Positions 4,740-57,609 of a DNA stretch of 64,000 bases are shown in pieces. A model generated the notes under the pieces. That model had not been told where the DNA came from. It searched no databases and worked only from the letters and a program-made list of their open reading frames with translations. The stretch comes from an uncultured Acidobacteriota bacterium. Its GTDB lineage: Bacteria; Acidobacteriota; Vicinamibacteria; Vicinamibacterales; UBA2999. The DNA is taken from NCBI GenBank assembly GCA_963841895.1, contig CAWJEO010000014.1, forward strand, positions 38,303 through 102,302. The letters are read 5' to 3'. A program made the translations under genes and the position numbers. How positions within the stretch are numbered: the first letter of the stretch is position 1; each line of letters opens with the position of its first letter.

Positions 4740-5577
4740 GCACCTGTCGCGGCCGGCCTCTTGAGGGCCGGCCGGCTGCCTGATGCGTGCAGTTTTTCCA
4801 ATAGCAACCGCCCGAAGTACGGTCCTTTGCCTTCGTCCTCGTGTTTGAAATACACGAAAACATCCTTGCACCGCGAGTGCCGAGATCCGCGACGGTGTCT
4901 GCCCAGCGCGCGATGTCGTCCTCGGTATAGCCCTCGTCGCGCAGTCTCAGGTAGGCGTAGTCGGCGGTCGACAGAATCGGGGTCGATCGTTTTTCGCTGT
5001 CGGCAATGCACAACGCCAGATTGCGATCGCGGAGCCGGGCGTAGACCTCTTCGTCGAGCCACGACTCATGACGAAACTCGAAGGCGCCGCAGACGCGCGG
5101 CGGCAGGTCGGCCAGAAACCCGTCGAGCGCGGCGAGGTCTTTCTTGAACGTCGGGGCGAGTTGGAAGAGCAGCGCCGCAAGCTTCGGCCCGAGCTCGGCC
5201 GCCGCCTCGCAGAACGCCGCCACAGGTTGCGCGACGTCACGAAGTTTGCGGTCGTGCGTGATGCGTCGGGGGGCCTTGAGCGTGAAGCGAAAGCCGTCGG
5301 GGACTTGCGCAGCCCAGCCGGCGACGAGCTTTGCCGTGGGCATGCGATAGAAGGTGTAGTTGATCTCGACCGTGGAGAAGCGTTCAGCGTAGAAGGGCAA
5401 CATCTTCGCCGCCGGTAAATCTGACGGATAGAAGTTACCCTTCCATTCCGGATAGTTGTAGCCGGACGTCCCGACGTGGATCACGAAAGGCGCGTCAGTT
5501 GCAGTTTCCAGTGAACAGTTCAAAGCAGCCCTCAGTGCCAATTCCAGCAACCGGCCAGTTTGAATGGCACTGGGCAC
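4619..5577 (-). CDS. DUF72 (YecE-like) family protein, frame-disrupted
   Basis: VIHVGTSGYNYPEWKGNFYPSDLP...RFSTVEINYTFY N-terminal signature; C-terminal KDVFVYFKHEDEGKGP found in a second frame (4619-5062). Confidence 0.6.
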
Positions 5578-5598
5578 TGGAAACTGACGAGCCGAGTG

Positions 5599-5928
5599 TT
5601 ACCAGCGCGGTTCGCGACGGCCGCCACCGCCGCCGTACCCACCTCGGCCGCCACCCCCGCCGCCGAAGTCGCCGCCCGACGGCTTCGGTCGCGCTTCGTT
5701 CACGACCAACGCCCGCCCATCCATCTGATACTGGTGGAACTCGCTGATGGCTTTCTGCGCATCGTCGTCCGACACCATCTCGACGAACGCAAAACCCCTC
5801 GCACGGCCAGTTGCCTGGTCGCGCATCACCCGAACGTTGTCGACTGCCCCAGCCCGACTGAAGAGCGACGTCAATTCTTCATCCGTGACTTTATACGGAA
5901 GGTTGCCCACGTACAATCTGCGGCCCAT
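5599..5928 (-). CDS. RRM-type RNA-binding protein with Gly-rich tail
   Basis: RNP2 LYVGNL and RNP1 RGFAFVEM motifs; GGGGRGGYGGGGGR tail; start at MGRRLYVGNL. Confidence 0.8.
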   Translation of the reverse strand: MGRRLYVGNLPYKVTDEELTSLFSRAGAVDNVRVMRDQATGRARGFAFVEMVSDDDAQKAISEFHQYQMDGRALVVNEARPKPSGGDFGGGGGGRGGYGGGGGRREPRW

Positions 5929-6129
5929 CGCTGCGCGACCCTTTTCGCGCGCTGGTCTCTGCCTTACGGAGCCACGACGGCGCGCGAGCGACGTGACACC
6001 GGGATTGCGCTCGCAACTGTCGGCCTTCGGGGACACATATGGGCACCGAAACGCGCTACAAGGCGGGCGTGTGACCCGGGAGTATATAGCAGAAATGTTG
6101 CCAAAACGGTCAGGACGGTCGAGGCGTCA

Positions 6130-7038
6130 ATGGCCGAGCTGAGCTGCGTGCTACATTCGCCGTATGCTCGCGGGCCGACAGTTCAGCCGGCAGTCAGACT
6201 CGTCGTGGCGGCCCTTTGCACAGCTTTTTCCAGCTGCGCCGGCCAGGCGCCGCGCCAGTACGAATTGCGTGGCCAGATCCTCGCGCTTCGCCCGGAAGCC
6301 AACGAAGTCCTCATCAAGCACGGCGACATCCAGAACTTCATGCCGGGCATGACGATGCCGTTCAAGGTCCGGGACGCCAGGCTGCTCGACGGCAAAGCCG
6401 GCGGCGACCTCGTCACCGCGCAGTTGATGGTCGGTGAGAACGAGGCCTGGCTCTCGGCGATCGAGAAGACCGGCTCGGCGCCGCTCGAGACGGTCGCCAC
6501 GATTCCCCCGGCGTCCTTCGTGACGCCGCTCGCACCCGGCGATCCCGCCCCCGACACCGAGCTCGCCAACCAGGACGGCAAGCCGGTCTCGCTCAAGGCG
6601 CTGAGGCCGCGGGCCGTCGCGATCACCTTTATCTATGTCCGCTGCCCGATGCCCGAGTTCTGCCCGCTGATGGATCGGCGCTTCGCCGACGTCCAGCGCC
6701 AGGTCGCGGCCGATGCGTCGCTCGGCGAGAGGGTCCACCTGCTGTCGGTCAGCTTCGATCCCGATCAGGACACGCCGGCCGCGCTGAAAGCGCACGCCGG
6801 CAAGCTCGTCGCCGACCCTGCGCGGTGGACGTTTGCGACGGCACCGCGCGAGACCATCGACCGCTTCGCGGCGGCGTTTGGGGTCAACGTCATCCGCGAG
6901 GCCGACCGTACCATCACCCACAACCTGCGCACGGCCGTCATCGGCCCGGACGGCAAGGTCGTCGCGATCTACAACGGCAGCGACTGGACCGCGGATCAGA
7001 TGGTCGGCGACCTGAAGCGCGCGCTCCAGGCCTCATGA
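6130..7038 (+). CDS. SCO1/SenC-family thioredoxin-fold copper chaperone with N-terminal Met-rich (MPGMTMPF) copper-binding domain; lipoprotein-like signal
   Basis: VRCPMPEFCP Cys motif in thioredoxin fold, ...SVSFDPDQDTP..., Met-rich N-domain; signal LVVAALCTAFSSC. Confidence 0.7.
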   Translation: MAELSCVLHSPYARGPTVQPAVRLVVAALCTAFSSCAGQAPRQYELRGQILALRPEANEVLIKHGDIQNFMPGMTMPFKVRDARLLDGKAGGDLVTAQLMVGENEAWLSAIEKTGSAPLETVATIPPASFVTPLAPGDPAPDTELANQDGKPVSLKALRPRAVAITFIYVRCPMPEFCPLMDRRFADVQRQVAADASLGERVHLLSVSFDPDQDTPAALKAHAGKLVADPARWTFATAPRETIDRFAAAFGVNVIREADRTITHNLRTAVIGPDGKVVAIYNGSDWTADQMVGDLKRALQAS

Positions 7039-7697
7039 TTCCGGCGCGCGAGGCCTTCACCCCGCGCGAGTGGGCCCTCATCCAGGCGCTCGACACGCCG
7101 CACAAGGTGCAGCGGTGGTTGAATGCGCTGCCCTACAACACCGAACGGACGCGCGAAACCCTCCGCGGATTCCGCGGCGTGATGCGCGCCGGCAAGGCGC
7201 ATTGCCTCGAAGCGGCGCTGACGGCGGCGGTCATTCTCGAGCAGCACGGTTATCCGCCGCTCGTCATGAGCATCGAATCCAAGGACTGGCTCGATCACGT
7301 CGTCTTTCTCTTCAAGGAGAACGGGCGATGGGGATCGATCGCGCGGTCGCGCGATCCGGGCTTGCACGGCCGCAAGCCGCGGTTCATGTCGCCGCGGGCG
7401 GTCGCAATCAGTTACGTCGAAGGCTACGTGGACTATACCGGCCGGGTCCGCGGCTACGGTGTCGCCAACCTCGACGAGGCGCTGCCGGACTACGACTGGC
7501 GCTTCTCGCTGAAGAACGTGTGGAAGGTCGAGCGGCTGCTGATTGACTGGCCGCACCGCAAGATCAAGACGTCAAACGCCCGCTTCCACGCCCTGCACGC
7601 GCGATACGTCGCATACCGCGAGCGCCACGGCCGGAAGCCGTGGCGTTACTACACCGGCCGGGACAAATGGGCGCCGTTGCCTGCGGAGTTCCTCTAG
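7035..7697 (+). CDS. conserved hypothetical protein, translationally coupled (ATGA overlap) to SCO gene
   Basis: ATG at 7035 overlaps SCO stop TGA 7036-7038; 220-aa ORF with coding-like composition; no family assigned. Confidence 0.55.
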   Translation: MIPAREAFTPREWALIQALDTPHKVQRWLNALPYNTERTRETLRGFRGVMRAGKAHCLEAALTAAVILEQHGYPPLVMSIESKDWLDHVVFLFKENGRWGSIARSRDPGLHGRKPRFMSPRAVAISYVEGYVDYTGRVRGYGVANLDEALPDYDWRFSLKNVWKVERLLIDWPHRKIKTSNARFHALHARYVAYRERHGRKPWRYYTGRDKWAPLPAEFL

Positions 7698-7710
7698 GCT
7701 CGCTTCGCTC

Positions 7711-7840
7711 GCTAGCGGAAGGTGCCTACGGTGCCAGGGTGCCTACAGTGCCAGGGTGCTGGTGCGTAGTGCTAGCATGTGCCAAGGTCCACCGGTCGCC
7801 TATCAGGTCACCAGCAGCTCTAGGCACCGTAGGCATCCGT
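7711..7840. repeat. tandem-word array with inverted partner (GGTGCCTACGGTGCCAGGGTGCC ... CTAGGCACCGTAGGCATCCGTAGC) between convergent genes
   Basis: read directly; lies between 7697 stop (+) and 7847 stop (-). Confidence 0.6.
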
Positions 7841-7846
7841 AGCCTG

Positions 7847-8770
7847 CTATTTGAGCTCCGCAAGAATCACTTCGATATTCGTCTTGAGCCGCGCCGCTTG
7901 CGGCGCCGCGTAGCCGGTGTACTTCGCCGGCATCGACCAGCCCGCGGCGATCTCGTCCGCTGACTTGCCCGCTTTCTTCCCGGCCTGCACGGCCGCGAGG
8001 AATTCGCGGTTGAACTCAGCGTACTCCGCGAGATCTTTCAGCGTCATCACCGTGCTGTGGCCGGTGATGATCGACTCGACGTTCTTGGCTGCGGCCGCCG
8101 CTTTCGCGAGGGTGTCGCCGATCGCGACGCCGCTGCCGCCGTTGTTGGCGTCGAGCAGCGGGAGATTCTTGCCGGAGAAAATGTCGCCCGCGTGCATCAC
8201 GCGCAACGCCGGGAACACGACCCACGCATCGCCGTTGGTGTGGCCACGGCCGAAGTAGTGGAGATCGATCTGGTCCGCGCCGCTCCCGATCGTCATCCGA
8301 TCGGTGAACGACCGCTTCGCCAGGCCCTTGCCCTTGCTCTCCTTGAACATGCCCAGGAACGTCTGCTGCTCCGCCGGGACGCCGGTCACGGCCTGCATCG
8401 CTTCCATGTTCGCCTTGGTGTTCTCGTGCACGACGATGTCGACGGTGGCCGGAAAATCAGGGTTGGTGCCGACGTGATCGAAATGCGTGTGGGTGTTGAT
8501 GATGGTCGTGATCGGCTTCGGCGTCAGTTCCTTGATCTTGGCCAGCAAGGTCGGGCCCCAGCCCGGGATCTTGGTGTCCACGACCACCACTCCGGCCGAT
8601 CCGACGAAGACGGCGGTATTGCCACCGCTGCCGGTGCCCCGCAGGACGAACAGGTTGTCCCGCAGTTTCTCGACTTCGAGCACACGGGCCGCGGGCTGCG
8701 GCGCCTGGGCGGCCACCATCGAGAGGGCGCCAACGACGACCAGACCAACGAGCACGACAACTCTTCGCAC
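7847..8770 (-). CDS. secreted MBL-fold metallo-hydrolase (paralog A)
   Basis: THTHFDHVG motif, signal peptide VLVGLVVVGALSMVAAQA; 307-aa intact ORF. Confidence 0.8.
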   Translation of the reverse strand: MRRVVVLVGLVVVGALSMVAAQAPQPAARVLEVEKLRDNLFVLRGTGSGGNTAVFVGSAGVVVVDTKIPGWGPTLLAKIKELTPKPITTIINTHTHFDHVGTNPDFPATVDIVVHENTKANMEAMQAVTGVPAEQQTFLGMFKESKGKGLAKRSFTDRMTIGSGADQIDLHYFGRGHTNGDAWVVFPALRVMHAGDIFSGKNLPLLDANNGGSGVAIGDTLAKAAAAAKNVESIITGHSTVMTLKDLAEYAEFNREFLAAVQAGKKAGKSADEIAAGWSMPAKYTGYAAPQAARLKTNIEVILAELK

Positions 8771-8794
8771 AGGGCAAGCTCCTTTCGAGGAAAA

Positions 8795-8866
8795 GGGATC
8801 AGGGATCGGGGATCGGGGATCAGGGCTGAGAACTCAGGAACTTAGGAACCTCGGAACTCAGGAACC
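8795..8866. repeat. two-part tandem-word element: (GGGATCR)x5 followed by (GGAACTYAGGAAC)-type words
   Basis: GGGATCAGGGATCGGGGATCGGGGATCAGGGCTGAGAACTCAGGAACTTAGGAACCTCGGAACTCAGGAACC; between MBL paralog A start and POP 3' end, and overlaps the last codons of POP (..FLSSEVPKFLSSQP). Confidence 0.7.
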
Positions 8867-42236: not shown

Positions 42237-44395
<2,159 letters not shown>

Positions 44396-44401
<6 letters not shown>

Positions 44402-44493
44402 TCTGGCGATGTCGTGATCTGGCGATCTGATGATCTAAAGCCCTGATCCGATCTCCTGGCTCCTCAGATCACCAGATCACCACATCACCACAT
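44396..44493. repeat. palindromic tandem-word element (GGTGATCTG family): GATCTGGCGATGTCGTGATCTGGCGATCTGATGATC ... CAGATCACCAGATCACCACATCACCACATC
   Basis: read directly between convergent kinase and DUF4097 gene. Confidence 0.7.
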
Positions 44494-44503
44494 CGCAAGA
44501 TTC

Positions 44504-45246
44504 TTATTTGCTTCTAATCTCGATCTTCCCTGTGACGACGTCGATCGAGATCACGGGTTCGCCCTTGCCGAGCGTCGCTTCGCTCCAGCGCGGGCCCCAT
44601 GACTCCTTACGGTTCAGCGGAATATCCGAGGCGATCGTGCCGTTGAGCGCGAGCGCCAGGATGCGCGCGTCGGTCGGGCGCGCCGCGAGCGTCAAGAGCA
44701 CATCGCCGTTGAACGCGCGCAAGCGCAGGAGCCCGCCGGCCGTCAGCCGCGTGCGATCGCCGTGACGTTGCCGATACCGGTCTCGAGGCGGACCGTCCCG
44801 CCGACATCGACCGCGTCGATCGGCCCTCGGCGGACGTCGGCCGTCACCGAACCATTCAACGCCTGACAGCGTCAGCTTCCCCTCGACGATCCGGATCGCG
44901 TTGAGGACGCGCAGCCTGCGGGACTCTCAGGGTGACGTCGGTGCGCAGGTTCGCGTCGGTGCCGCCCTCAGGCTGGACGCCTCGAATGCGAATCTGCTTC
45001 TCTTCCTCGACAATGTCGATCGGGATCCGCGCCAGCGCCTCGGCGGTCGGCGCCTGGCGCACGACCTCGATGACGGCATCGCTGCGATCGGAGCCTTCGA
45101 TGCGGACGTGGCCGATCGTGATCTCGAGCACTGAGGACGCGGTCGGCGGGAAGCGGGACGGTACGCGACTGCGTGTCGGTCGCCGCGCGCTGCGGCGGCG
45201 CCAGTGCGAGCAACGCCAGCGCACCAAGCACGAGGTGGAGCAGCAC
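44504..45246 (-). CDS. DUF4097-family beta-strand-repeat protein (putative adhesin/LiaG-like), secreted; frame-disrupted
   Basis: signal MLLHLVLGALALLALAPPQRA; repeated V.I.G.V.I blocks (LEITIGHVRIEGSDRSDAVIEVV; LLTLAARPTDARILALALNGTIASD). Confidence 0.55.
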
Positions 45247-45337
45247 GGTCAGGAAGTCCGAGCATATACTTTCTGGACACAGGCGTCATGGCTCGAGTCC
45301 TCGTGTCCGGTGTGATCCTCAACGCGGGATCGTCCCC

Positions 45338-46565
45338 GCGTTGCGGCGTCGTGCGCGCTGGCGCGGGCTGCTGCTGATACTGTCGCTCGTGGCCAGTCCG
45401 GCTCTCGCCGTCGCGCAGATGCCGACCGAGCCAGTCAGCCTGGGCGACGGCCGCGTCGTCCTTGGCGCGGACGTGACCGTCACCTTCGCCAGCGACGATC
45501 CCGGCTTCTTCAACTACACCGACTACGAATACAGCGCGCTGCGCAACTTCCGCGTCGGCCTCACTGCCGAGTTCCGCGCCAGCTGCGCGGCTGCAGTTCC
45601 TCGGCGAGCTGCGCATGGATCACGGCGATCGGCTGCAGCCGTTCGCGTTGTTTGCCCGGATCCGGCCGTGGCCGGCGCGCCGCTTCGACATCCAGGTCGG
45701 ACGCATCCCGCCCACCTTCGGCGCCTTCGGCCGCAGCGCCTACGGGACGGCGAACATGCTGATCGGGACGCCGCTCGCGTATCAGTACCTCACCTCGCTC
45801 CGGCCTGACGCGCTGCCGGCGCACGACCGACGATCTCATCCGGATGCGCGGGCGCGGGTGGCTGGCGATCTACCCGATTGGCAATCAGACGCCAGGACCG
45901 CGGGTTGCCGTTCGTGAACAGCGTGCGCTGGGACACCGGCGTGCAGGTGCACGGCGTCAACGGCATGATCGAATGGACCGGCGCGGTCACGACCGGATCG
46001 CTGTCGAATCCGCGTGTCGGCGACGACAACGATGGCCGCCAGGTCGCCGGCCGGGTCGTGCTCCGGCCCGCGCCGGCAATTGCGCTGGGCGCGTCGGCGG
46101 CCCGCGGCGCGTATCTGAGCAAGAGTCTCGAATCGGCGCTCGGCGAAGGCCGCAGCGTCGAGGACGGCGTGCAGCAGGCCTTCGGCGTTGACGCGGAGTA
46201 TGCCATCGGCCGCTTTCTCGCGCGCGGCGGAAGTGATCTGGTCGCGTGGACGCTGCCGGTCGGATTGACGCTCGGCCGAGAATGAACGGCTCGATGCGAC
46301 GTCGGTGCTGGTCGAAGGCCGCTATCGCATCCTGCCCGGACTGCAGCTCGCGGCGCGCGTCGAGCGGCTGGGGTTCGCCGAGTTGCCGACGGCGGCTGGC
46401 CCGATGACATGGGATGCGCCGGTGCGCCGGCTCGAGATCGGCGATCGGCTACTCCATCATCCGCAACGTCACGCTCAAGGCGTCCTGGCAGCGCAACCTG
46501 CGCGACGGCGGCCGCGTGCGCCGAGACTCGCTGTGGGCGCGGCCAGGTCGTGTACTGGTTCTGAG
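45338..46565 (+). CDS. putative outer-membrane beta-barrel protein (C-terminal ..VVYWF-stop), frame-disrupted
   Basis: signal RRRARWRGLLLILSLVASPALAVAQ (TTG start); alternating beta-strand pattern; terminal aromatic; pieces in four frames. Confidence 0.5.
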
Positions 46566-46599
46566 TGTGCAGGCTGCTGGCTGCAGGGCCTGGCGCGGT

Positions 46600-47261
46600 A
46601 TGGTCGCGGTCGCTCTGTTGACCGCGTCGACCACCGGGTCGGTCTGCGGCCGACGCTCGGCGCAGACGCTCGGCGCGATTCGCGGCCGTCTCGACATTCG
46701 CCGCATGGCCCGGCCGACCGAGCGGCGGCCTGAAGTGGCGGAGCCCGGCAGCGCCGGGTCGCGCGACTGCCACGACCTGCGCCGCGGCGTCGTCTATCTC
46801 GAGACCGCGCCGCGCGGCGCGTTCGAGGAGCGCGAAGCCGGGCGCGCCGTCATGGACCAGCGCAACGAGACGTTCGTGCCGCACGTCCTGGCGGTCACGG
46901 TCGGCACCGTCGTCGACTTCCCCAACAGCGACAAGACGTTTCACAACGTCTTCTCGCTCTCCAAGGCCGAAGCGCTTCGACCTCGGCCGCTACGCGGTCG
47001 GGCGGTCGAAGTCGGTGCGATTCGATCGGCCGGGCGTCGTGCGCGTGTTCTGCGACATCCACTCGCACATGAACGCGTTCATCCTGGTCTTCAGCCATCC
47101 GTTCTTCGACGTCACGGACCCGGACGGCCGCTTCCGTCTCGACAACGTTCCGCCCGGCACCTACACCGTCGTCGGCTGGTACGAGGGCGAGGCGCGCACG
47201 TCGCGGGCCGTGACCGTGCACGGCGGGCGGCGTCGTCGATCTCGAGCTCGTGGTTCCAGTA
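46600..47261 (+). CDS. cupredoxin-like domain protein (type-1-copper-like C-x2-H-x2-M: FCDIHSHM) with C-terminal CarboxypepD_reg-like segment; start uncertain
   Basis: TFHNVFS...VRVFCDIHSHMNAF ligand spacing like amicyanin; DPDGRFRLDNVPPGTYTVVGWYEG; stop TAA overlaps ATG of kinase (TAATG). Confidence 0.55.
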
Positions 47262-49058
47262 ATGGCGATGCTGTCGTCGCTGACCAATCGGATCTTCCTC
47301 GCGAGCACGCTCCTGGCCACCGTGTCGATCGGCTTTGCGGTGTACTTCGTCAGCAGCCAGCTGCGCAGCGAGGCCGAGGCCGAACTGCAGCGCGACCTCC
47401 GCGAAGCGGTGACGCTGGTCGAACAGCAGCGGACGAGCCTGTTCGAGACCTTCACGCGAACCGCGCGCCTGATCGCCGACCTGCCCAAGTTCAAGGCCGC
47501 GGTCGAGACGCGCGACGCGCCGACGGTCGAGCCGATCGCGCGCGACTATCAGCAGCAGGCGGGGTCGGATCTGTTTCTGGTCACGGATCCCGACGGCCAC
47601 GTGCTGGCCGCGCTCGGCGGCCTGCCGGTCGCGGTCAGCCGGGCTCTCGACGCGCCGGGCATCGCGCGGGCGCGCGGCGGCACGCCGGCGACGCGTTCTG
47701 GCCGCACCCGAACGGCGTGCTGCAGGTCGTCAGCGTGCCGGTGACGATCGGCCTCGAGCGGCCTGAACTGCTCGGCACGCTCACGATCGGCTACCTGCTC
47801 GACAACGACCGCGCCGCGTCGTTCAAGGCGCTGACCGGCGCCGACGTCGCGTTCGCCATCGACGGCCAGGTGCGCGCGTCGACGCTCGGCCCGGACGCGC
47901 ACGCGCGGCTGGCCGGCGCTGCTCGGCTCCGAGCTGGTCCCGCGCACGATGATCGGCGGCAGCGAGTACGCCGCGCTCGTTCGCGCCCTGCACGCGCCGC
48001 ACGACGAGGCCTCGACCGGCGCCGACCGTGCCGATCGCCATCGTCCTGCGATCGCGCACCGAGCGGATGCGCACGCTCTCGGCGATTCAGACCGGGCTCG
48101 GCCTGGTCGACGCTCGCGACGATCGCTGCTGGCCGCCGCCATCAGCTACGGCGTGGCGCGCACGGTGACGCGGCCGCTCGCGACGATCACCAATCACATG
48201 CGGGACATCGCCTCGACCGGCGACCTGACGCGCAAGCTGCGGCTGAGCGATTCCGTCGAGCTGGCACGACGAAGATACGCGGCTGCTCGCCACGACCTTC
48301 AACACGCTCACCGACTCGGTCGCGCGGTTCCAGCGCGAGGCCGCGCAGCGCGAGCGGCTGTCGTCGCTCGGCCGGATGTCGACGATCGTCGCGCACGAGA
48401 TTCGCAATCCGCTGATGATCGTCAAGGGCGCGCTGCGGCAGCTCACGCGCGACGGCGCGACCGCCGACGACATCCGCGAAGCGGCGGCCGACATCGACGG
48501 CGAGACCGATCGCCTCAATCGCGTGGTCAACGAAGTGCTCGACTTCGCCCGGCCGATTCGCTTCGAGCGCTCGCCGACCGACATCAACGCGCTGTGCCGG
48601 GATGCGGTCAGCGCCGTCGCGGCGGCCGCCGGATCCGACCCGCCGGTCAGCGACCGAGCTCGACCCGACCGTCCCTCCGCTCGAAACCGACAGCGAGAAG
48701 CTGCGCACGGCGCTGGTCAACCTGCTCACCAACGCGCGCCAGGCGGTCGCTGGCGCGAACGTCTGCCGACGGCGCGGAACCGGACGCGCCGGTCACGCTT
48801 GACGACCGGCCGGCTGACCGATCGACCGGGTGGCGATCTCGATCCGCGATCGCGGCGTCGGCATCGGCGCCGACGATCTGCCGCGCATCTTCGATCCATA
48901 CTTCACGACCCGGCGCGCCGGCACCGGCCTCGGCCTGCCGATCGCCAAGAACATCATCGATGCGCTCGGCGGCACTCTCACCGTCGCCAGCACGCCCAGG
49001 CGCCGGCACCCGGATCCGGATCGAGCTGGGCGACGCGCCGGCGGGACGAGCCTCATGA
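47262..49058 (+). CDS. sensor histidine kinase (periplasmic sensor, HAMP, HisKA, HATPase_c); several frame breaks
   Basis: TM1 IFLASTLLATVSIGFAVYFV, H-box MSTIVAHEIRNPL, N-box LVNLLTNARQA, G-boxes IRDRGVGIGADDLPRIFDPYFTT..GTGLGL; stop TGA 49056-49058. Confidence 0.75.
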
Positions 49059-50427
49059 CACCAGGCGGCAGCATTCTTCTCGCCGACGACGAAGAGAAGA
49101 TTCTCAAGACGCTGAGCCGTGCCCTGCGCGAGGACGGGCACGAAGTCGTCACCACGCCGAGCGCGCTGCAGGCGCAGAAGCTGCTCGTCGATCGGTCCTT
49201 CGACCTGCTCGTCATCGATTACCTCATGCCCGAGCGCACCGGGCTCGAAGTGATCCGCGAGCTTGCCGCCACCACGCCGGAAGGCGAGCGGCCGGCGATC
49301 GTCATGATGACGGCGCACGGCACCGTCGAGAGCGCGGTCGAGGCGATGAAGCTCGGCGCCCGCGACTACCTGCAGAAGCCGTTCGAGGTCGAAGAGCTCC
49401 TGGTCACGGTACGGCGGCTGCTCGAAGAGCAGCGGACGCGAACCGGGCTTCGCTATCTGCTCAGCGAGCGCGACGCCGAGTTCAATCACTACGGCCTGGT
49501 CGGGCCGAAGCCGCGCGGTCATGGACGTGATCAAGCGCGCCGAGCTGGTCGCCGAGTCGCGCAGCACGGTCCTGGTGACCGGGCGAAACCGGCACGGGAA
49601 AGGAGCTCGTCGCGCGCGCGATTCACGCCCGCAGCGCGCAGCGCGACATGCCGCTCATCAAGGTGAACTGCGCGGCGATTCCGGAGACGCTGCTCGAGTC
49701 CGAGCTGTTCGGCCACGTGCGCGGCGCCTTCACCGGCGCGTCGTTCACCAAGAAGGGGCGCTTCGCGCTGGCCGACGGCGGGACGATCTTCCTCGACGAA
49801 ATCGGCACCGTCAGCATCACCGTCCAGGCCAAGCTGCTGCGCGTCCTGCAGGATCGCGAGTTCGAGCCGCTCGGCGTCGGAGCGCACGCAGAAGGTGGAC
49901 GTCCGCGTCATCGCCGCGACCAATCGCGATCTGCGGGCCGATGGTGAGCTGCGAGCAAGTTTCAGGAGGATCTCTACTACCGCCTCAACGTCATTCCGAT
50001 CGCCATTCCCCCGCTTCGCGAGCGGCGCGAGGACATTCCGATGCTGGTCGAGCATTTCCTCCGCCGCTTCGCGCGCGACAGCGGCAAGCGAATCGACAGC
50101 GTCGAGCAAGGCGTGATGGAGGAGCTCTCCCGCTACGACTGGCCCGGCAACGTCCGCGAGCTCGAGAACACGATCGAGCGCGCCGTCGTCCTCGCCACCG
50201 ATGCGCGCCTCACCCGCGAGACGGTCTGGCTGATGGGCGCGGTCTCGCCGCCGGTGTCGGGACTGCCGTCGCAGCGGCTGCACGCGAACCTCGAGTGGGC
50301 GGAGCGCGAGACGATTCGCCGCGCGCTCGAACAATCGGGCGGGGTCAAGAAGGACGCCGCCGAGTTGATGGGCATCAGTCAGCGTGCCCTGAGCCACTAC
50401 CTGCAGAAGTACCGGATCGACAACTGA
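49054..50427 (+). CDS. sigma-54-dependent Fis-family response regulator (NtrC-type: REC + AAA+ sigma-54 activator + HTH); one frame break near 49880-49960
   Basis: REC (LLADDE..D; DYLMPE), Walker [15 protein letters not shown] sigma-54 contact motif, ESELFGH, C-terminal [20 protein letters not shown]; ATG overlaps kinase stop (ATGA). Confidence 0.85.
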
Positions 50428-50515
50428 CCATCTGCGAATGCATCGCGTGAATCGCGCCACGTGGTGGATACGACGCCGGCCTCAACGGCGTCGCCGCGAC
50501 CATCGCGCCCGCGAC

Positions 50516-50549
50516 TTACGGCTGCCGTAAACGATTACAGCAGCCGTAA
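50516..50549. promoter_or_regulatory. two tandem 15-bp palindromes TTACGGCTGCCGTAA and TTACAGCAGCCGTAA (candidate enhancer/UAS for the sigma-54 activator)
   Basis: read directly; 65-100 nt upstream of the candidate -24/-12 element. Confidence 0.5.
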
Positions 50550-50614
50550 CCTCGAGTGGACAGCGTGCGGACGCACGATCGTGGTTTTCGCGGGGCATCC
50601 GCGTTTTCGCCTCG

Positions 50615-50630
50615 CGGCATCAGCCTTGCT
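50615..50630 (+). promoter_or_regulatory. candidate sigma-54 (-24/-12) promoter CGGCATCAGCCTTGCT
   Basis: GG and GC dinucleotides with canonical 10-nt spacing (GG-N10-GC); about 28 nt upstream of the CuA-cupredoxin ATG (50658). Confidence 0.5.
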
Positions 50631-50657
50631 CCATGAGCGGCAACGCCGAAGGTGTGT

Positions 50658-51056
50658 ATGAAACGAAACGTGTGTGAAGCGGTAGCCGTGGTGGGGACGG
50701 CGCTCCTGCTGGGGAGCATCGTCGTGGCTGCCCGGCAGGACCCCGCCACGGCCTCCGCGCCTCGTGAGATCGAAGTGGTCGCCAAGCGGTTCGCGTTCGA
50801 GCCGGCGCGCATCGAGGTGACCGAAGGCGAACGGATTCGACTGCTCGTTCGCTCGGCTGATGGTGTGCACGGGTTCGAGATCAAGCGCCACAGAGTGAAC
50901 AAGGTGATTCCGCGTGGCGCGAAACCGGTGGTGATTGACTTCGTTGCCGCCGCCCCGGGCAGCTACGAGATTCTCTGCTCCGAAGAATGCGGTGATGGCC
51001 ACGAGACGATGAAAGGGACACTCGTCGTGCAGGCCAGGCCGAAAACGCCACAATGA
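50658..51056 (+). CDS. CuA-type cupredoxin domain protein (C-x3-C-x3-H-x2-M), secreted
   Basis: YEILCSEECGDGHETMKG matches the binuclear CuA motif of COX2/N2OR; signal VAVVGTALLLGSIVVAA. Confidence 0.7.
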   Translation: MKRNVCEAVAVVGTALLLGSIVVAARQDPATASAPREIEVVAKRFAFEPARIEVTEGERIRLLVRSADGVHGFEIKRHRVNKVIPRGAKPVVIDFVAAAPGSYEILCSEECGDGHETMKGTLVVQARPKTPQ

Positions 51057-51107
51057 GCGCCGACTGTCGTTGGTCGTCGCCCTTCTTCCTCTTCAGGACA
51101 TGCGCCA

Positions 51108-51553
51108 ATGAGACGTGCAGGTTATGGGTTCGCGGCAGTCATGATGCTGGTCATGACGCTTGGCTGCGATGAATCGCTCAGGGAGTTCGCTGGTCCTACC
51201 CCCGACCTCGAGCCGACGTTTTCCGCCATTCAACGCGACATCTTCAACGCTCCCGACTCGGCGGGCCGGCTGGCGTGCACGGGCTGTCACAATCCGACCG
51301 GCGCGCGCGTCAACGGCATGAACCTGACCGGCGCCACGGCGTACGCGACGACTCGTCAACGCCGCCAGCGTGGGCAAGCCGGGGGCTATCCGGGTGGTGC
51401 CGGGCGATCCCGACGCAAGCTATCTGGTGCAGAAGATCGAAGGCGCGCCGGGCATCGTCGGCGATGCGGATGCCGCTGACGCCGCCTTACCTGACGCCCG
51501 GACAGATCGCGGTGATTCGGCGCTGGATCGAGCTTGGCGCGGCCAATAATTGA
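51108..51553 (+). CDS. cytochrome-c-like domain lipoprotein (CxxCH); one frame break near 51350
   Basis: lipobox MMLVMTLGC; haem motif ACTGCHNP; C-terminal VVPGDPDASYLVQKIEG..RMPLTPPYLTPGQIAVIRRWIELGAANN in +1 frame. Confidence 0.6.
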
Positions 51554-51575
51554 AGTGCCTTTCAAAGGATTCGTT

Positions 51576-52460
51576 GTGACCTCGAGATCACCGCTGCTCG
51601 TTGCGCTTCTGCTCGCCGCCCTCGTTCTTCCCGGCATCCGCGCTCGCGCCAGACACCGGCCGGCGATCCGGCCGGCGCCGCCGCCGGCGGCCCAGCCCGA
51701 GGACGATCCGGATCGCGACATCAACTTCGCACAGCCCGACTTCACCCTGGCGGCGCTCCCGACGACGCTGCGCGTGCCGCCGCTACAAGAGCGCGTTTCG
51801 CGTGACGCACCGGTTCGGCCGCCCGCTCGGCTCCGGCGACTTCGGCGATCTTGCTCGAGGATCTGTTCGGCCTCGACTGCGGCGCCGTCATCGGCCTCGA
51901 GTACCGCTTCGGACTCTTCCGCGGCGCCCAGATCGGAATCCACCGCACATCGATCGACAAGACGATCCAGTTCTTCGGACAGTACAACGTCAAGCAGCAG
52001 CGCGACGGCTTCCCGATTCGGCGTGGCCGTGATGGGCAAGCATCGAAGGCACGAACAACTTCACGAGGACAGCTACTCGCCCGGGCATCGGCGTCGCTGC
52101 TGTCGCGCGAGATTGGCCAGCACGGCGGCGGTCTACATCGAGCCGTTCTGGGTCAACAACACGAACCCGCTGCCCGAGGAGCTCGTCGACGACAACGACA
52201 CGGTCATCATCGGCGCTCGGCGCGCGCCTGCGGGTCCGGCCGACCGTGTACTGCGTCTTCGAAGCCGCGCCGCGGGTCGGCGGCTACGATCCCGGCGTCG
52301 ACGCATGTCAGTTTCGGTATCGAGAAGCGCGCCGGCGGCCACCTGTTCCAGCTCAACTTCTCGAACGGCTTCGGCACGACGCTCGCCCAGATCGCGCGCG
52401 GCGGCTTCAACAACGACGACTGGTATCTCGGCTTCAACATCTCGAGGAAGTTTTTCTGAT
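51576..52460 (+). CDS. putative beta-barrel outer-membrane protein (C-terminal ..LGFNISRKFF-stop); at least three frame breaks
   Basis: signal SPLLVALLLAALVLPGIRARA; alternating strand pattern; terminal Phe. Confidence 0.45.
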
Positions 52461-52495
52461 CACCACGAGGACCGGGCCGACGAGGCAGGGCGCGA

Positions 52496-52922
52496 TTGGC
52501 AGTGGGGCTCCTGCTGCTGGCGGCGGCCGGCCGGCTGCAGCGGCGGCGTCGCCGACGTCGGCCACGCCGCCGGCGCCGACTCCGCCACCACGTCTCGCCC
52601 ACGCCGCCCGCGGGCCCGGCGCCGCCCGGGCTGACGCGCGACGATCACGATTACCGCGAACAATACGTTCGTGCCGTCAGAAGTGACGATCGCGGTCGGC
52701 GGCCGGGTGACGTTCATCAACCAGAACAATCGCGCGCACGACATCACGTCGGATCCGCTGCACCTGCACACCGACTGTCCGCCGGTGATCGAGGTCGGCT
52801 TCATCCAGCCCGGTCAGACCAAGCAGACCGGGCGCGCTGACCGTCGCGCGCGACGTGCGGCTTTCACGATCACATGCAGGAAACACAATCCGGACCTGCA
52901 CGGCCGCATCATCGTCCAGTGA
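52496..52922 (+). CDS. small cupredoxin-like lipoprotein, copy 1 (C-x2-H-x2-M: TCGFHDHM); frame breaks near C-terminus; start uncertain
   Basis: VTIAVGGRVTFINQNNRAHDITSDPLHLHTDCPPV..GFIQPGQTKQTG ... NPDLHGRIIVQ; paralog of 52937-53345. Confidence 0.5.
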
Positions 52923-52936
52923 AGGCGAGGCATCTC

Positions 52937-53345
52937 ATGAAGGTTCGCTACGGCATTCTTCTTTCGCTCCTGCTGGCCGCGGCCTGCGGCGGGCAGCAAC
53001 GACAGCAGCGGCGGCGGCACCCCGACGACGCCCCGACGCCGCCGACCACGCCGCCGGTCGCAGACGACGACGATCACCATCACGGCGGCGGGCATCAATC
53101 CGCAGCGCATCACCGTGTCGCCGGGCACGCGGGTCACCTTCGTCAACAACGACACTCGCACCCACGAGATGAACTCGGATCCGCATCCGACCCACGGCGA
53201 CTGCCCGCCGATCGACGATGTCGGATTCCTCTCGCCGGGACAGTCGAAGCAGACCGGCAACCTCACGACCGCGCGGACGTGCGGCTTTCACGATCACAAC
53301 CAGCCGGATACCGCGTCGCTGCGGGGACAGATCATCGTGCAGTAA
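52937..53345 (+). CDS. small cupredoxin-like lipoprotein, copy 2 (TCGFHDHNQ); one frame break after lipobox
   Basis: MKVRYGILLSLLLAAACGG lipobox; ITVSPGTRVTFVNNDTRTHEMNSDPHPTHGDCPPIDDVGFLSPGQSKQTG..TCGFHDHNQPDTASLRGQIIVQ. Confidence 0.55.
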
Positions 53346-53465: not shown

Positions 53466-54268
53466 TCAGGCGCCGCGGAAGACGGGTTTCCGCTTCTCGA
53501 GATTGGCGGCGATGCCTTCGCGCGCGTCGTCGCTCTCGAACAGCCGCTGCTGCAGCTCGCGCTCGAGTGCCAGGCCTTCCGAAAAGCCCATTTCCAGTCC
53601 TGACTGCACGGCCCGCTTGATGTGGCCGACGGCCTTGCTGGCGCGGTGCGGCGGCGTGAACTGCGCGGCGTAGTCGAGCACGGCGTCGCGGAACGACTTG
53701 CCCCTTCAGCTCGTCCTCGCCCCACACGTGGGTCACCAGGCCGAGTCCCTTCGCGTCTTCGAAAGACAGCAGCGCGCCGAGCGTCATCAGCTCGATCGCC
53801 TTGGCCTTGCCGACGATCCGGGCCAGCCGCTGGGTGCCGCCGGTGCCGGGCAGCACGCCCAGAGCGACCTCGGGGAGGCCGATCTTGCCGCCGCCCTGTC
53901 GCGCGATCCGGAGATCCGCGGCCATCGCCACCTCGAGCCCGCCGCCGACGGTGTGCCCGTTGAGGGCCGGCGATCACGAGCTTCGGCGTCTGCTCGAGAC
54001 GGTTCATCGTCTCGTTGGCGTGCAGGCAGAAGTAGTACTTGAACGACGGATCGGCGTCCTTGAGCATGCCGATGTTGGCGCCGGCGCAGAAGAACTTCTC
54101 GCCCGCTCCGGTGATGACGATGACGTGCACGGCTGCGTCCATCCGCGCCTCGAGCACGGCACGGTCGATCTCCTGCATCATCTCGTAGGAGTAGGTATTG
54201 GCCGGCGGATCGTTCAGCTCGATGAGGGCAATGCCGTTGCTGGCGGTGTAGGTGATGCGTGTAGGCAT
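53466..54268 (-). CDS. enoyl-CoA hydratase/isomerase (crotonase) family protein; at least two frame breaks
   Basis: IVITGAGEKFFCAGANI oxyanion-hole region; GGGLEVAMAADLRIA; C-terminal ..LEKRKPVFRGA. Confidence 0.7.
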
Positions 54269-54403
54269 ATCGCGATTCTTGGAGTGCGCGGATTCGTGAT
54301 CTGCGAACGCGACGACGCGCATCGTGCACGTCACAACGAGCGGAACGCTCTGCGACGAATCGGCGCAATCCGAGATCTGCGTATCTGCGGTATCTCTGCG
54401 TAC

Positions 54404-55828
54404 TCACGCGTCCGTCCGCACGTACTCGAAGTCGATCGGCAACCGATTGATCCCACGCGGCGGCGGCGCGATGTAGTTGGCGAACTGGCCCGGCTTGTAG
54501 ACCGGGATCGACTGGATGCTGCGCAGGTAGTCCTTGTCCGCCGTCGTCGGCAGCCATTCGCTCTTCCGGCGCTCCCATTCGTCCGCGCTCATTGGCTGTC
54601 CCGCCGGATCGAAGTGGCGGCCGGCGAACACGCCGATCTGGCGATTGAACTTGCGCGACGGCAGGTAGATCCGATCGGTCATGCCGTTCGCTTCGAGCAC
54701 GCGCTTGTTCCAGCGATCGACGCCGGCCTGGCAGTCGCCGACATACCAGTCGCGCAGCACCTCGTTGAGGGCGTTGCGCATCGGGATCTCCTGACGATCC
54801 GGCGCGCCCTGCTCGGTCATGAGGTCGAGCAGATACACGCTGTCCTCGAGCACGTGGTCGTCGTCGTACTTGTCTTCCTCGGCGCGGCCCTTGAGACCGT
54901 TGGAGAAGTAGTTGGCGGCGTTGCTCGACACTTCGCTGCCGTGCAGGTCGAGGCTCTGGCTGAACCAGAAGTTGACGAACTTCTGGATGAGCGGGATGTC
55001 GATACCGCCGACCTTGCGGACGTCCTCGGAGAAGCCGGCTTCCTTCATCAACTGGCAGGTGCGCTCGAGGATGCGGGCGATGCCGCTCTCGCCGACGAAC
55101 ATGTGGTGCGCCTCTTCGGTCAGCATGAAGCGGGTCGTCCGCGACAGCGGATCGAGCGAGCTCTCCGACAACGAGAGGAGCTGCGACTTGCCGTCGCGAT
55201 CGGTGAACATCGTGAAGGCGAAGAAGTCGAGCCAGGTGTCGATCGGCTCGTTGAACGCCTCGAGCATGCGCGGCGAATCGGTGCCGCTGCGGCGCTCGAG
55301 CAGCGCCTCCGCTTCTTCGCGGCCATCACGCCCGAAGTACGAGTGCAGCAGGTAGACCATCGCCCAGAGGTGGCGGCCTTCCTCGACGTTGACCTGGAAG
55401 AGGTTGCGCAGGTCGTACAGGCTCGGGCAATGCGCGCCGAGCATGCGCTGCTGCTCGACGCTCGCGGGTTCGGTGTCGCCCTGGAGGACGATCAGCCGGC
55501 GAAGGGGATTGCGGAATTCGCCGGGCACTTCCTGCCACACCGGCTGGCCCTTGAAGTCGCCAAAGCCGATGCGTCGATCGGCGGTCGGCTCGGCCAGGAA
55601 AATGCCCCAGCGATAGTCGGGCAGCTTGACGTAGTCGAAGTGCGCCCAGCCCGCCGAATCGACGCTCACCGCCGTCCGCAGGTAAACCTGATGCTGATCC
55701 TGGAACCCCTGCGGTCCCATGTCGCGCCACCAGTCGAGATAGGCCGGCTGCCAGTGCTCGAGCGCGCGCAGAAGGCGCTTGTTCCCCGAGAGGCCGACGT
55801 TGTTGGGAATGCGTTCGTTGAGCTGCAT
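54404..55828 (-). CDS. boxB: benzoyl-CoA 2,3-epoxidase (benzoyl-CoA oxygenase) component B, di-iron
   Basis: 474-aa intact ORF with BoxB-characteristic N-terminus MQLNERIPNNVGLSGNKRLLRALEHWQPAYLDWW and di-iron EExH contexts. Confidence 0.85.
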   Translation of the reverse strand: MQLNERIPNNVGLSGNKRLLRALEHWQPAYLDWWRDMGPQGFQDQHQVYLRTAVSVDSAGWAHFDYVKLPDYRWGIFLAEPTADRRIGFGDFKGQPVWQEVPGEFRNPLRRLIVLQGDTEPASVEQQRMLGAHCPSLYDLRNLFQVNVEEGRHLWAMVYLLHSYFGRDGREEAEALLERRSGTDSPRMLEAFNEPIDTWLDFFAFTMFTDRDGKSQLLSLSESSLDPLSRTTRFMLTEEAHHMFVGESGIARILERTCQLMKEAGFSEDVRKVGGIDIPLIQKFVNFWFSQSLDLHGSEVSSNAANYFSNGLKGRAEEDKYDDDHVLEDSVYLLDLMTEQGAPDRQEIPMRNALNEVLRDWYVGDCQAGVDRWNKRVLEANGMTDRIYLPSRKFNRQIGVFAGRHFDPAGQPMSADEWERRKSEWLPTTADKDYLRSIQSIPVYKPGQFANYIAPPPRGINRLPIDFEYVRTDA

Positions 55829-55843
55829 GAGGCTGAATCCTTG

Positions 55844-55940
55844 TCAGTTACAAGTTGCAAGTTCACAAGTTCAAAGTTAGAGTTCGGCGGACAGCGTTCG
55901 ACCGCTCCAACTTTGAACTTGGAACTTGGAACTTGTAACT
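55844..55940. repeat. roughly 36-bp-stem hairpin built from CAAGTTC words (GTCAGTTACAAGTTGCAAGTTCACAAGTTCAAAGTT ... AACTTTGAACTTGGAACTTGGAACTTGTAACTGTC) between boxC stop and boxB RBS
   Basis: read directly; boxB SD AAGGA lies just downstream. Confidence 0.65.
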
Positions 55941-55942
55941 GT

Positions 55943-57609
55943 CTAGGTTCTTTTCCAGTCGAACGTCGGCCTTCCCTCACGGCCGTAGACCGTGAGCGCG
56001 CCGCGCTCGCCGACGGCGTTGGGACGCTGGAAGATCCAGTTCTGCCACGCGGTGAGGCGGCCGAAGATCTTCGTCTCCATCGTCTCGGGGCCGGCGAAGC
56101 GGAGGTTGGCTTCCATTCCGGTCAACGCGTCGGGCGAGAATGCCGTGCGCTCTTCGATGGCGAGGCGGACTTCGTCCTCCCAGTCGATGTCGTCCGGCGC
56201 GAACGACACGAGGCCGGCGGCGAGCGCTTCCTCCGCGTCGAACGGCCCGTCGTGCGCGAGGACCTCGTCGACGTGACCTGGCTCTCCGAGGAAGCGCGTC
56301 TGCAGCCGGGTGAGGCCGGTGCTCATCGGGTACGACCCGCCGTTCATCACCGACAACTGGATCGTATTCGCTTCGTCCGGGTGCGCGAGCATGTACGAGC
56401 GATCCGCGGCGAGCGCGAGCTCGAACAGCGTCCCGGCGAAGGCGTTGCCGGGCTCGATCAGCGCGAAGAGGCTGCGGGCGGTGAGGTCGAGCCGCTTCAG
56501 CGTCCGCCGGATGTGGCCGATGATCTCGCGCACCAGCCAGTGATCGCGATGCGCGTCGAGCGTTCGATCGACATCGAGGACGGCCTGCGGATCGCCGGTT
56601 GCGCGCAGCAGAATCGTGCCGATCTCGGGCTCGTTCAGCCGCAACCGGAGGAGCGCATCGTCGAACTCGCGAAACGCCCGCAGGGCCCACGACTGATCGC
56701 CGGCCTGCTGGAACGCGTCCGGCGAGTCGGGCTGCGGACTGTCGGGGGCGCTGATCGTGAGCTCGCAGACCCGCTTCGCGCGATCGATCGAGCCGCGCAC
56801 GTATCGATACTGAATGGTGTCGCCGTCAATGGCCGGATTGAGCGGTGCCAGCGAAATCCCGGGACCGGTTGCGGGCCGATCGGATTCGGCCGCCATCGCA
56901 GTGCGCGCGTTCGGTCACGGCGCTCCTGAAACTGACGGCTCGGCACGACTTTGTCGACAAGCCGCCATTCGACGGCTCGCTTGCCCCGCACGCCTTCAGT
57001 CAGCGTGCTGAACGCATCGGCGAGATCGCGGCGCACCTTGCGCTTGTCGACGACGCGCGTGAGACCGCCGGTTCCCGGCAGCACGCCGAGGAGCGGCGTT
57101 TCCGGCAGTGCCACCGAGGCATTGCCATCGTCCACCAGGTAGATCTCATCGCAGGCGAGCGCGAGCTCGTAGCCACCGCCGGCGCAGATGCCGTTGAGCG
57201 CGGCCAGGAACTTGACGCCGCTCGATCGGCTCATGTCTTCCATCCCGATCCGCGTCTCGTTGGTGAACTTGCAGAAGTTCACCTTGAAGCCGTGGCTGGA
57301 CGAGCCGAGCATGAAGATGTTGGCGCCGGCGCAGAAGATGCGCGGCTTCAAGCTGGTGACGACGACGGCGTGGACCTCGGGATGCTCGAAGCGCAGCCGC
57401 TGCAGCGCGTCGGCAAGCTCGATGTCGACGCCGAGATCGTACGAGTTGAGCTTCAGCTTGTAGTCGGCGGGACGGAGGCCGGCATCCTCCTTGACGTCCA
57501 TGGCCAGCGTCGCCACCGCGCCGTCCACCGAGAGTTTCCAGTGCTTGTAGCGATCCGGCGAGGTTTCGAAGGACAACGAGGGCGCGGGCGTCTGGAGAGT
57601 GTGCTCCAC
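55943..57609 (-). CDS. boxC: benzoyl-CoA-dihydrodiol lyase (2,3-epoxybenzoyl-CoA dihydrolase); one frame break near 56890-56920
   Basis: N-terminal crotonase-like domain (VTSLKPRIFCAGANIFML; LNGICAGGGYELALACD) in 56635-57609 frame; C-terminal BoxC domain in 55943-56896 frame. Confidence 0.8.

Follow-up and report, generated by a model that had tools for sequence, protein, structure and literature searches.

A conserved locus of Vicinamibacterales joins an outer-membrane barrel to CuA-type and other cupredoxins under putative sigma-54 control, with a tentative role in electron transfer

What use does a soil bacterium make of a run of genes that combines cupredoxins and a cytochrome with outer-membrane barrels and sets them beside a sigma-54 two-component system? 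Such a locus occupies 45.3-53.4 kb of the window analysed here, a 64-kb stretch of contig CAWJEO010000014.1 from an uncultured bacterium of the order Vicinamibacterales. A first-pass annotation of the bare sequence had read it as a regulated copper-handling or extracellular electron-transfer module. Our analysis supports that reading, as the folds, the ligands, the linkage and the sigma-54 wiring all held. Two transcription units make up the locus, one conserved system whose main hosts are Vicinamibacterales (Acidobacteriota). The evidence leans to electron transfer over copper handling. Our tentative proposal, which we rate somewhat short of probable, is an electron-transfer chain located at the outer membrane and switched on through sigma-54; Fe(II) is the substrate we favour.

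The locus holds nine consecutive plus-strand genes, here called A to I, and all except E are broken by frameshifts. The features, in window coordinates, are these:

45288..46564, plus strand: A, putative outer-membrane β-barrel; 423 amino acids in the intact homologue, about 7 frameshifts here
46598..47261, plus strand: B, periplasmic type-1-like cupredoxin with a CarboxypepD_reg β-sandwich; HNVFS ... FCDIHSHM
47262..49058, plus strand: C, sensor histidine kinase; transmembrane segment, dCache_3, transmembrane segment, HAMP, HisKA and HATPase_c (Pfam); about 10 frameshifts here
49055..50427, plus strand: D, NtrC-type sigma-54 enhancer-binding response regulator; REC, AAA+ with GAFTGA, HTH_8
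50516-50530 and 50535-50549, plus strand: tandem palindromes TTACGGCTGCCGTAA and TTACAGCAGCCGTAA; TTAC-N7-GTAA, putative enhancer
50615..50630 (core 50616-50629), plus strand: sigma-54-type -24/-12 element CGGCATCAGCCTTGCT, about 28 nt before the start codon of E
50658..51056, plus strand: E, secreted CuA-type cupredoxin; His in GVHGFEI, then CSEECGDGHETM; the only frameshift-free gene of the locus
51108..51553, plus strand: F, single-haem c-type cytochrome lipoprotein; lipobox ..LGC-DE, CTGCH, distal RMP Met
51576..52459, plus strand: G, DUF5777 (PF19089) outer-membrane 12-stranded β-barrel; about 8 frameshifts here
52470..52922 (start approximate), plus strand: H, small cupredoxin-fold lipoprotein; RAHD ... 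DPLHLHTDCP ... TCGFHDHM
52937..53345, plus strand: I, paralogous cupredoxin-fold lipoprotein; lipobox LAAAC-GG; RTHEM ... DPHPTHGDCP ... TCGFHDHNQ

Everything that the first-pass annotation had listed is present on the plus strand. Its count of eight genes does not stand, as its own list holds nine, and its motifs are all there but become readable only after frame correction. Coding sequence carries about one single-base indel per 200-250 bp across the whole window (e.g. 42306-44860, 45288-53345 and 53472-54262), with about 35 frame changes within 45.3-53.4 kb. Because of these frameshifts raw lists of open reading frames (ORFs) are useless, and at 45-54 kb an uncorrected listing yields fragments only. 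A third-position GC plot and a codon-usage stitch revealed continuous plus-strand coding that switches frame every 200-250 bp (G+C content of the window, 63-73%). Every fragment of the locus keeps its third-position GC and its amino-acid conservation. The flanking genes, a kinase gene upstream and an enoyl-CoA hydratase gene downstream, are frameshifted too.

We corrected the frames with a codon-usage dynamic-programming stitch and thereafter used an intact homologue, L001, for all protein work. This metagenome contig, found via a DUF5777 fragment, shares 90.5% DNA identity with the locus over 11.2 kb and has the same gene order. Its genes A-G and I are uninterrupted, while H is broken near its start; the proteins measure 423 (A), 221 (B), 595 (C), 455 (D), 132 (E), 147 (F), 297 (G) and 135 (H and I) amino acids. 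The flanks also match those of the window: a Ser/Thr kinase gene precedes the locus, and genes for enoyl-CoA hydratase and BoxB follow it. Another contig, L084, is 94.7% identical at the DNA level; it is broken at other positions than the window and has D, E and F intact. With L001 near-intact and L084 broken elsewhere, the frameshifts are assembly errors rather than gene decay. The window looks like an unpolished long-read assembly, and any gene call in it needs frame correction.

In order to see whether the genes belong together, we scanned genomes, one per species, with the DUF5777 alignment. This returned 252 relatives, of which the best 80 were used for synteny; nearly all of these best 80 are labelled Acidobacteriota or Vicinamibacterales. 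By tblastn, the order C-D-(E)-(F)-G-(H/I) occurs in nearly all of the best 80 of 252, and A-B in about half. A metagenome scan added 80 further loci, and most of those with enough flank have the same order. Clustering of 1870 ORFs from 163 loci found G in 163, E in 89, D in 87, C in 77, F in 75 and H/I in 56; local housekeeping synteny aside, only the families of the module recur. Recurrence of one gene order in about 160 independent loci puts the clustering far outside what chance would give, and the gene neighbourhood drawn from this one window is indeed linked in its relatives.

G is the constant core of the module, and its partners vary. In the 139 evaluable loci G is accompanied by both E and F (71), by E only (28), by F only (23) or by neither (12), and in five E is fused to it. 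E, a copper protein, and F, a haem protein, thus replace each other beside G, and what they have in common is one-electron transfer. Loci can do without the CuA protein or without the cytochrome, which points to electron transfer and not to copper carriage.

An exhaustive DUF5777 profile search resolved five independent fused proteins of other lineages (P0248, P0250, P0255, P0281 and P0303) into an N-terminal E-like CuA domain of about 130 amino acids, a Pro/Ala-rich linker and a DUF5777 barrel. Fused P0250 scores 23.5 bits on Pfam COX2, above the cut-off of 22. Same-frame CuA-barrel fusions lie in loci L087, L089, L092 and L097. We counted fusions only when they were same-frame and stop-free; several apparent fusions in metagenome loci (e.g. 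L147) turned out to be over-extended ORFs in another frame and were discarded. The fusions indicate that E and G work together physically, and they are the module's most original feature.

The two halves of the locus are separated by a D-E gap of 230 nt that holds the candidate regulatory DNA. TTAC-N7-GTAA has only two sites in the 64-kb window, both in front of E and about 70-100 nt upstream of the -24/-12 element. The same palindrome occurs in 98 of 113 D-to-E/F gaps, twice in 30 of those, with 9 matches in the other 1.57 Mb of the same loci. The element GGCA[CT]-N5-TTGC stands at the same place in 109 of the 113 gaps. The sigma-54 promoter call rests on this comparative test because the motif count in the window alone, 5 found against 2.1 expected, is not significant. 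Palindromes and promoter together appear to form the classical enhancer plus sigma-54 promoter layout, with the palindromes as predicted, putative binding sites for D. The sigma-54 wiring and the second transcription unit from E onward, both suggested earlier, are therefore borne out by a conserved -24/-12 promoter with an enhancer-like palindrome in the D-E gap. Downstream of the promoter the intergenic spacing from E to I is 14-51 nt, and the gene after I is convergent. A scan of the window for sigma-70 promoters and terminators gave nothing useful, and an Rfam scan of the window had no matches.

The first gene of the output unit, E, had been called a CuA-type cupredoxin, and this assignment is well founded. 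Against the CuA domain of Thermus ba3 oxidase in the Protein Data Bank (PDB), E aligns with E=1e-13 and all ligands match residue for residue. The CuA pattern His ... Cys-x-Glu-x-Cys-x3-His-x2-Met is at least 95% conserved among 48 sequences. In Pfam, E scores 49 bits for Cupredoxin_1 and 19.6 bits for COX2 (cut-off 22), and in NCBIfam it matches the CuA parts of NosZ and CoxB, the latter with 36 bits against a cut-off of 148. E shares the full H...C-x-E-x-C-G-x2-H-x2-M pattern of the CuA sites of Thermus thermophilus ba3 subunit II (2cua) and NosZ. Unlike these, it is a protein of about 130 amino acids, stand-alone or barrel-fused, without transmembrane hairpin, subunit I partner or NosZ propeller. 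We considered E as a cytochrome c oxidase subunit II and rejected this, as E (about 132 amino acids) has a single signal-like segment and no transmembrane hairpin, and no oxidase gene recurs in the 163 loci.

The CxxCH lipoprotein F is a real cytochrome-c-type domain, homologous to FoxE, the two-haem Fe(II) oxidoreductase of Rhodobacter ferrooxidans SW2 (foxEYZ; 5mab). FoxE is its only relative in the PDB, with E=4e-5 for the single sequence and 1.9e-9 for a profile of 16 sequences that matches both FoxE domains. F shares CxxCH, PGDP, the RMP Met and WI..GA with both haem domains. Within its own family of 63 sequences C-D-E, CxxCH, PGDP..SY, RMP and RWI..GA are conserved, and the haem Cys/His and the RMP Met are invariant. 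F is a single copy of the repeated FoxE haem domain. It differs from FoxE in having one domain and one haem, in being a lipoprotein and in being absent from many otherwise complete loci. Its Pfam match to PSCyt1 is weak, with 19.3 bits below the cut-off of 22.

The residue at +2 of the lipobox differs between the carriers. In F the lipobox Cys is followed by an invariant Asp-Glu (C-D-E; 51108-51170), and H and I have C-G-G (I: 52937-53000). Asp at +2 keeps lipoproteins in the inner membrane of E. coli, a rule that may not be this phylum's. If it holds, F is possibly anchored in the inner membrane because of this Asp, with H and I on the outer membrane, an arrangement that would suit a relay across the periplasm.

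G, which had been noted as another outer-membrane barrel, scores 94 bits for DUF5777, above the Pfam threshold, and has the fold of a 12-stranded barrel in its AlphaFold2 model (mean predicted local distance difference test, pLDDT, 68). The model is closest to the KdgM and NanC porins, FapF, COG4313 channels and autotransporter barrels, with PcoB lower. Near its N-terminus G has a conserved segment, PDFTL..LPTTLRLP. NCBIfam holds nothing specific for G or for B.

Copies of the barrel vary in number and place. The DUF5777 gene is duplicated in tandem in L009 (10001-10756 and 10759-11619) and L114 (9959-10786 and 10783-11625), and in one genome the second copy lies on the other strand (L013, 8840-9760, minus strand). 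Several genomes have a second F-G or E-F-G locus without two-component genes (L034, L036, L039, L044 and L054). Near two paralogous barrel loci we found ORFs resembling pyrroloquinoline quinone (PQQ)-dependent dehydrogenases (L039, 4712-7122; L076, 171-1100 and 11925-13529). One such ORF has a cytochrome c-like tail. The find recalls FoxY of foxEYZ, but these ORFs do not recur in the 163 loci.

H and I, described earlier as tandem paralogous cupredoxin lipoproteins, are present with TCGFHDHM and TCGFHDHNQ once the frames are corrected. In H, indels fall in the signal region and around the ligand loop; tblastn maps the protein to 52671-52919, and ATCGFHDHMQET, which includes TCGFHDHM, sits in another frame (frame 2) between two indels. 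Pfam gives both a weak Cupredoxin_1 match. The AlphaFold2 model of I (mean pLDDT 85) is a plastocyanin fold; its top Foldseek matches are plastocyanins with a TM score of 0.75 and a probability of 1.0, and amicyanin and AcoP also match. When aligned, its His, Cys and His coincide with the ligands of plastocyanin and amicyanin, and I has 1281 homologues, named 'plastocyanin' by JGI. Among 78 members of the H/I family the canonical Cys and C-terminal His never vary, and 74 have the N-terminal His. The position of the amicyanin Met varies: H has Met there, I has Asn, and other members have Asp, Leu or Glu. In addition, the family has an invariant second Cys (DCP) and invariant HPxH and HDH motifs. 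H and I are unusual cupredoxins with a putative metal site.

In loci without F, a lipoprotein of about 135 amino acids with a twin-arginine (Tat) signal and three conserved His motifs (NHxH, DHxH and HxHTVTFN) often follows the barrel directly (L088, 8014-8382; L147, 11235-11687; L090, 4675-5070; L161, 1183-2010). It has no Pfam match.

Turning to the sensor unit, D shows the NtrC-family architecture in Pfam (Response_reg 89 bits, Sigma54_activat 229 bits, HTH_8 33 bits). The nearest NCBIfam models are AtoC (450 bits, cut-off 714) and ZraR (400, cut-off 760) for D, and AtoS (204, cut-off 646) and ZraS (168, cut-off 479) for C, with C far below its cut-offs and D below. C lies upstream of D in 77 loci. 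The stop-start overlaps described earlier at B/C and C/D are clean in L001 (B, C and D at 5034-5699, 5699-7486 and 7483-8850), the one between C and D being 4 nt, so that the sensor genes form one unit and B is predicted to be translationally coupled to the kinase. As in ZraPSR and AtoSC, a periplasm-sensing kinase is paired with an NtrC-type activator on an adjacent sigma-54 promoter and, as with ZraP, a small periplasmic accessory, B, is encoded beside the kinase. In contrast to those systems, whose equivalog cut-offs C and D miss by far, the locus has dCache_3 as its sensor domain and a cupredoxin with a β-sandwich as its accessory.

The ligands proposed for B were confirmed by conservation, as His / Cys-x2-His-x2-Met is at least 95% conserved among 51 homologues, a type-1 set. 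Pfam finds CarboxypepD_reg (33.8 bits) and, below the cut-off of 21, Copper-bind (17 bits); in the PDB, B weakly matches the cupredoxin domains of the copper nitrite reductases 9cck and 6hbe. For A, protein A of L001 maps by tblastn to 45311-46561 across three frames. The earlier call of an outer-membrane β-barrel holds in part: an N-terminal signal-like segment, an alternating sequence pattern and the C-terminal GQVVYWF fit a putative barrel, but A has no family match in Pfam or NCBIfam and no sequence match in the PDB. A is an accessory that about half of the related loci have. Where A and B are missing, the gene directly upstream of the kinase encodes a secreted unannotated protein of about 185 amino acids that is unrelated to either (L016, 5213-5773; L094, 942-1502; L114, 5183-5626). 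As this protein replaces A/B, the accessory partner of the sensor is variable.

How does the locus compare with known chains? In Acidithiobacillus ferrooxidans electrons pass from the porin-cytochrome Cyc2 through the cupredoxins rusticyanin and Cup and through Cyc1 to the CuA of the aa3 oxidase (CoxB), and the cytochrome FoxE, which is periplasmic, accepts electrons from Fe(II) (PMC10654088). Our locus resembles the rus chain in its outer-membrane barrel tied to a one-electron redox domain, its periplasmic cupredoxins and its CuA centre. Like Cyc2, the barrel has an N-terminally fused redox domain in relatives of this locus, and AcoP is matched by the model of I. The locus differs in lacking Cyc2 sequence similarity, in its 12-strand DUF5777 barrel, in a fused domain that is CuA and not haem, in the lack of CoxA or another oxidase, in its sigma-54 two-component control and in its host, a neutrophilic soil acidobacterium. 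We therefore rejected a Cyc2-type fused cytochrome-porin, as the fused relatives carry CuA on a 12-strand DUF5777 barrel and have no Cyc2 family match. Overall, the output half seems to share with Cyc2/rus and FoxE only the FoxE haem domain and generic cupredoxin folds.

We picture the system as follows. Unit 1 (A-B-C-D) would be the sensor, in which D would bind the two TTAC-N7-GTAA palindromes (50516-50549) and activate the sigma-54 promoter (50616-50629). Unit 2 (E-F-G-H-I) would be the output and would most likely form a relay of one-electron carriers held at the outer membrane, with G as the fixed outer-membrane component and E, F and H/I as small, partly interchangeable carriers that dock to it. 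The role of the chain would be to oxidise reduced metal that reaches or passes the outer membrane, with Fe(II) as first choice and Cu(I) or Mn(II) as alternatives. The electrons would then go to the respiratory chain, parallel to the route from Cyc2 through rusticyanin to the CuA of the aa3 oxidase and to periplasmic FoxE. Gene content, folds, conserved ligand residues, synteny, the conservation of promoter and palindromes and the CuA-barrel fusion are observed; we infer the loading of the cofactors, the binding of D to the palindromes, the contact between carriers and G, the direction of electron flow, the substrate and the signal that is sensed. A bolder version, which we consider possible but doubtful, makes DUF5777 plus CuA a new outer-membrane electron conduit, a 'cupredoxin-porin' and copper-based counterpart of Cyc2. 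Together with the FoxE-like cytochrome and the unusual Cys2-His-rich cupredoxins it would allow Vicinamibacterales, abundant in soil, to trade electrons with Fe(II) or other redox-active material outside the cell, under the sigma-54 switch.

Several observations weigh against an electron-transfer chain. No oxidase, bc1, quinone-reducing or multihaem gene recurs nearby in the 163 loci, which leaves a chain without an encoded start or end, and in 12 of the 139 evaluable loci both E and F are missing beside G. Confidence in the model of G is no more than moderate (pLDDT 68) and, in contrast to the barrel proposed for Cyc2, one of 12 strands leaves too little room inside for a redox domain. F resembles FoxE at the domain level only, with one haem instead of two, and no family like FoxY (a PQQ protein) or FoxZ recurs in the 163 loci, so the two-haem foxEYZ system is not what we see here. 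H and I have no conserved axial Met, and their extra invariant Cys and His, in a loop that is modelled at low confidence in I, could equally form a metal site or a disulfide. The Tat-signal HxH lipoprotein, which replaces H/I in some loci, looks like a metal binder. The missing donor or acceptor enzyme, the narrow barrel, the additional Cys and His of H/I and the HxH lipoproteins therefore make copper trafficking or homeostasis a serious rival, although on balance an unlikely one. G would then be an outer-membrane copper channel in a role like that of PcoB/CopB or OprC, and E, H, I and the His-rich lipoproteins would hand over copper, either for uptake under scarcity or for sequestration or export under excess; B would be a copper-sensing accessory to the kinase, like ZraP for ZraS. 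This would suit the four of nine proteins that have cupredoxin folds with Cys, His and Met residues, the metal-responsive ZraS/ZraR among the nearest named two-component relatives, and the copper chaperone that the first-pass annotation had placed at a distance in the same window, where Pfam indeed finds a CusF_Ec plus SCO1/SenC fusion at 6256-7027. Yet CuA and haem c are electron-transfer cofactors and not copper carriers, and F takes the place of E beside G in 23 loci. In the 163 loci no multicopper oxidase, P-type ATPase, resistance-nodulation-division pump, CopC/CopD or CusF recurs beside the module. PcoB ranks far below the KdgM-type porins for G, which lacks a Met/His-rich N-terminal region. 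The known copper two-component systems CusRS and CopRS use OmpR-type regulators, whereas D is a sigma-54 activator. We had also considered a PcoB/CopB copper-resistance barrel outright and rejected it: the locus has no sequence relationship to PcoB/CopB or CopC and lacks the copABCD/pco context, with no CopA multicopper oxidase and no CopD, and in contrast to that system it has CuA, haem c and sigma-54 control instead of an OmpR-type regulator.

Two further explanations are less probable still. Sigma-54 two-component systems of the ZraPSR kind, with periplasmic accessory proteins, control envelope stress responses, and they are the nearest models for C and D. The locus might thus serve envelope redox or stress defence, in which haem and copper proteins feed electrons to oxidant detoxification or envelope repair without conserving energy and the barrel is an anchor or the entry pore of the stressor. 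The lack of a respiratory partner encoded nearby and the variation of the accessory genes (A/B or the protein of about 185 amino acids) would fit, but no peroxidase, reductase or Msr-type enzyme recurs in the 163 loci and the conserved products are a barrel and electron carriers only, and we consider this distinctly unlikely. A decaying pseudogene cluster or accidental adjacency, for which the many frame changes of the locus could be taken, is very improbable. The frameshifts are window-wide with coding signal kept, the contigs L001 and L084 are intact or broken elsewhere, and gene order and regulatory DNA are conserved in about 160 loci; for practical purposes L001, L084 and the conserved order refute it. 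The sigma-54-switched electron-transfer chain remains the reading we prefer.

The genes around the locus are of other kinds. The protein at 6256-7027 (plus strand) is a lipoprotein in which a CusF-like copper-binding domain is fused to a SCO1/SenC thioredoxin-like domain whose Cys motif is CPMPEFCP (C-x5-C) and not CxxxC. It is unlinked to the locus and a plausible maturation factor for CuA sites. Between the Ser/Thr kinase gene and A, a minus-strand gene at 44504-45227 diverges from A; it is conserved in 13 loci, and its product in relatives starts like MLFHLALG...TDTQTRTV. Downstream, a convergent block at 53472-56896 (minus strand) encodes enoyl-CoA hydratase, a BoxB-like benzoyl-CoA oxygenase component of 474 amino acids and a BoxC-like protein. 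The BoxB-like ORF is the one long intact ORF in this area. The block is syntenic in the closest relatives only and unrelated to the module.

The arrangement, which the first-pass annotation could not assign to a named system, is likewise not described in the literature we searched, which mentions neither DUF5777 nor this gene arrangement. Even if the system handles copper, the CuA-barrel fusion, the H/I family with its invariant second Cys and HPxH/HDH, and the unit of palindromes and sigma-54 promoter would be new. DUF5777 is a family of thousands of members, and the Vicinamibacterales (Acidobacteria subdivision 6), with cultured relatives such as Luteitalea and Vicinamibacter, are common in soil. 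Should the system prove to conduct electrons, a copper-based route would join the haem-based ones of Cyc2, MtoAB/PioAB and FoxE. This would also point to unrecognised metal-redox activity in soils that current iron-gene annotation probably misses.

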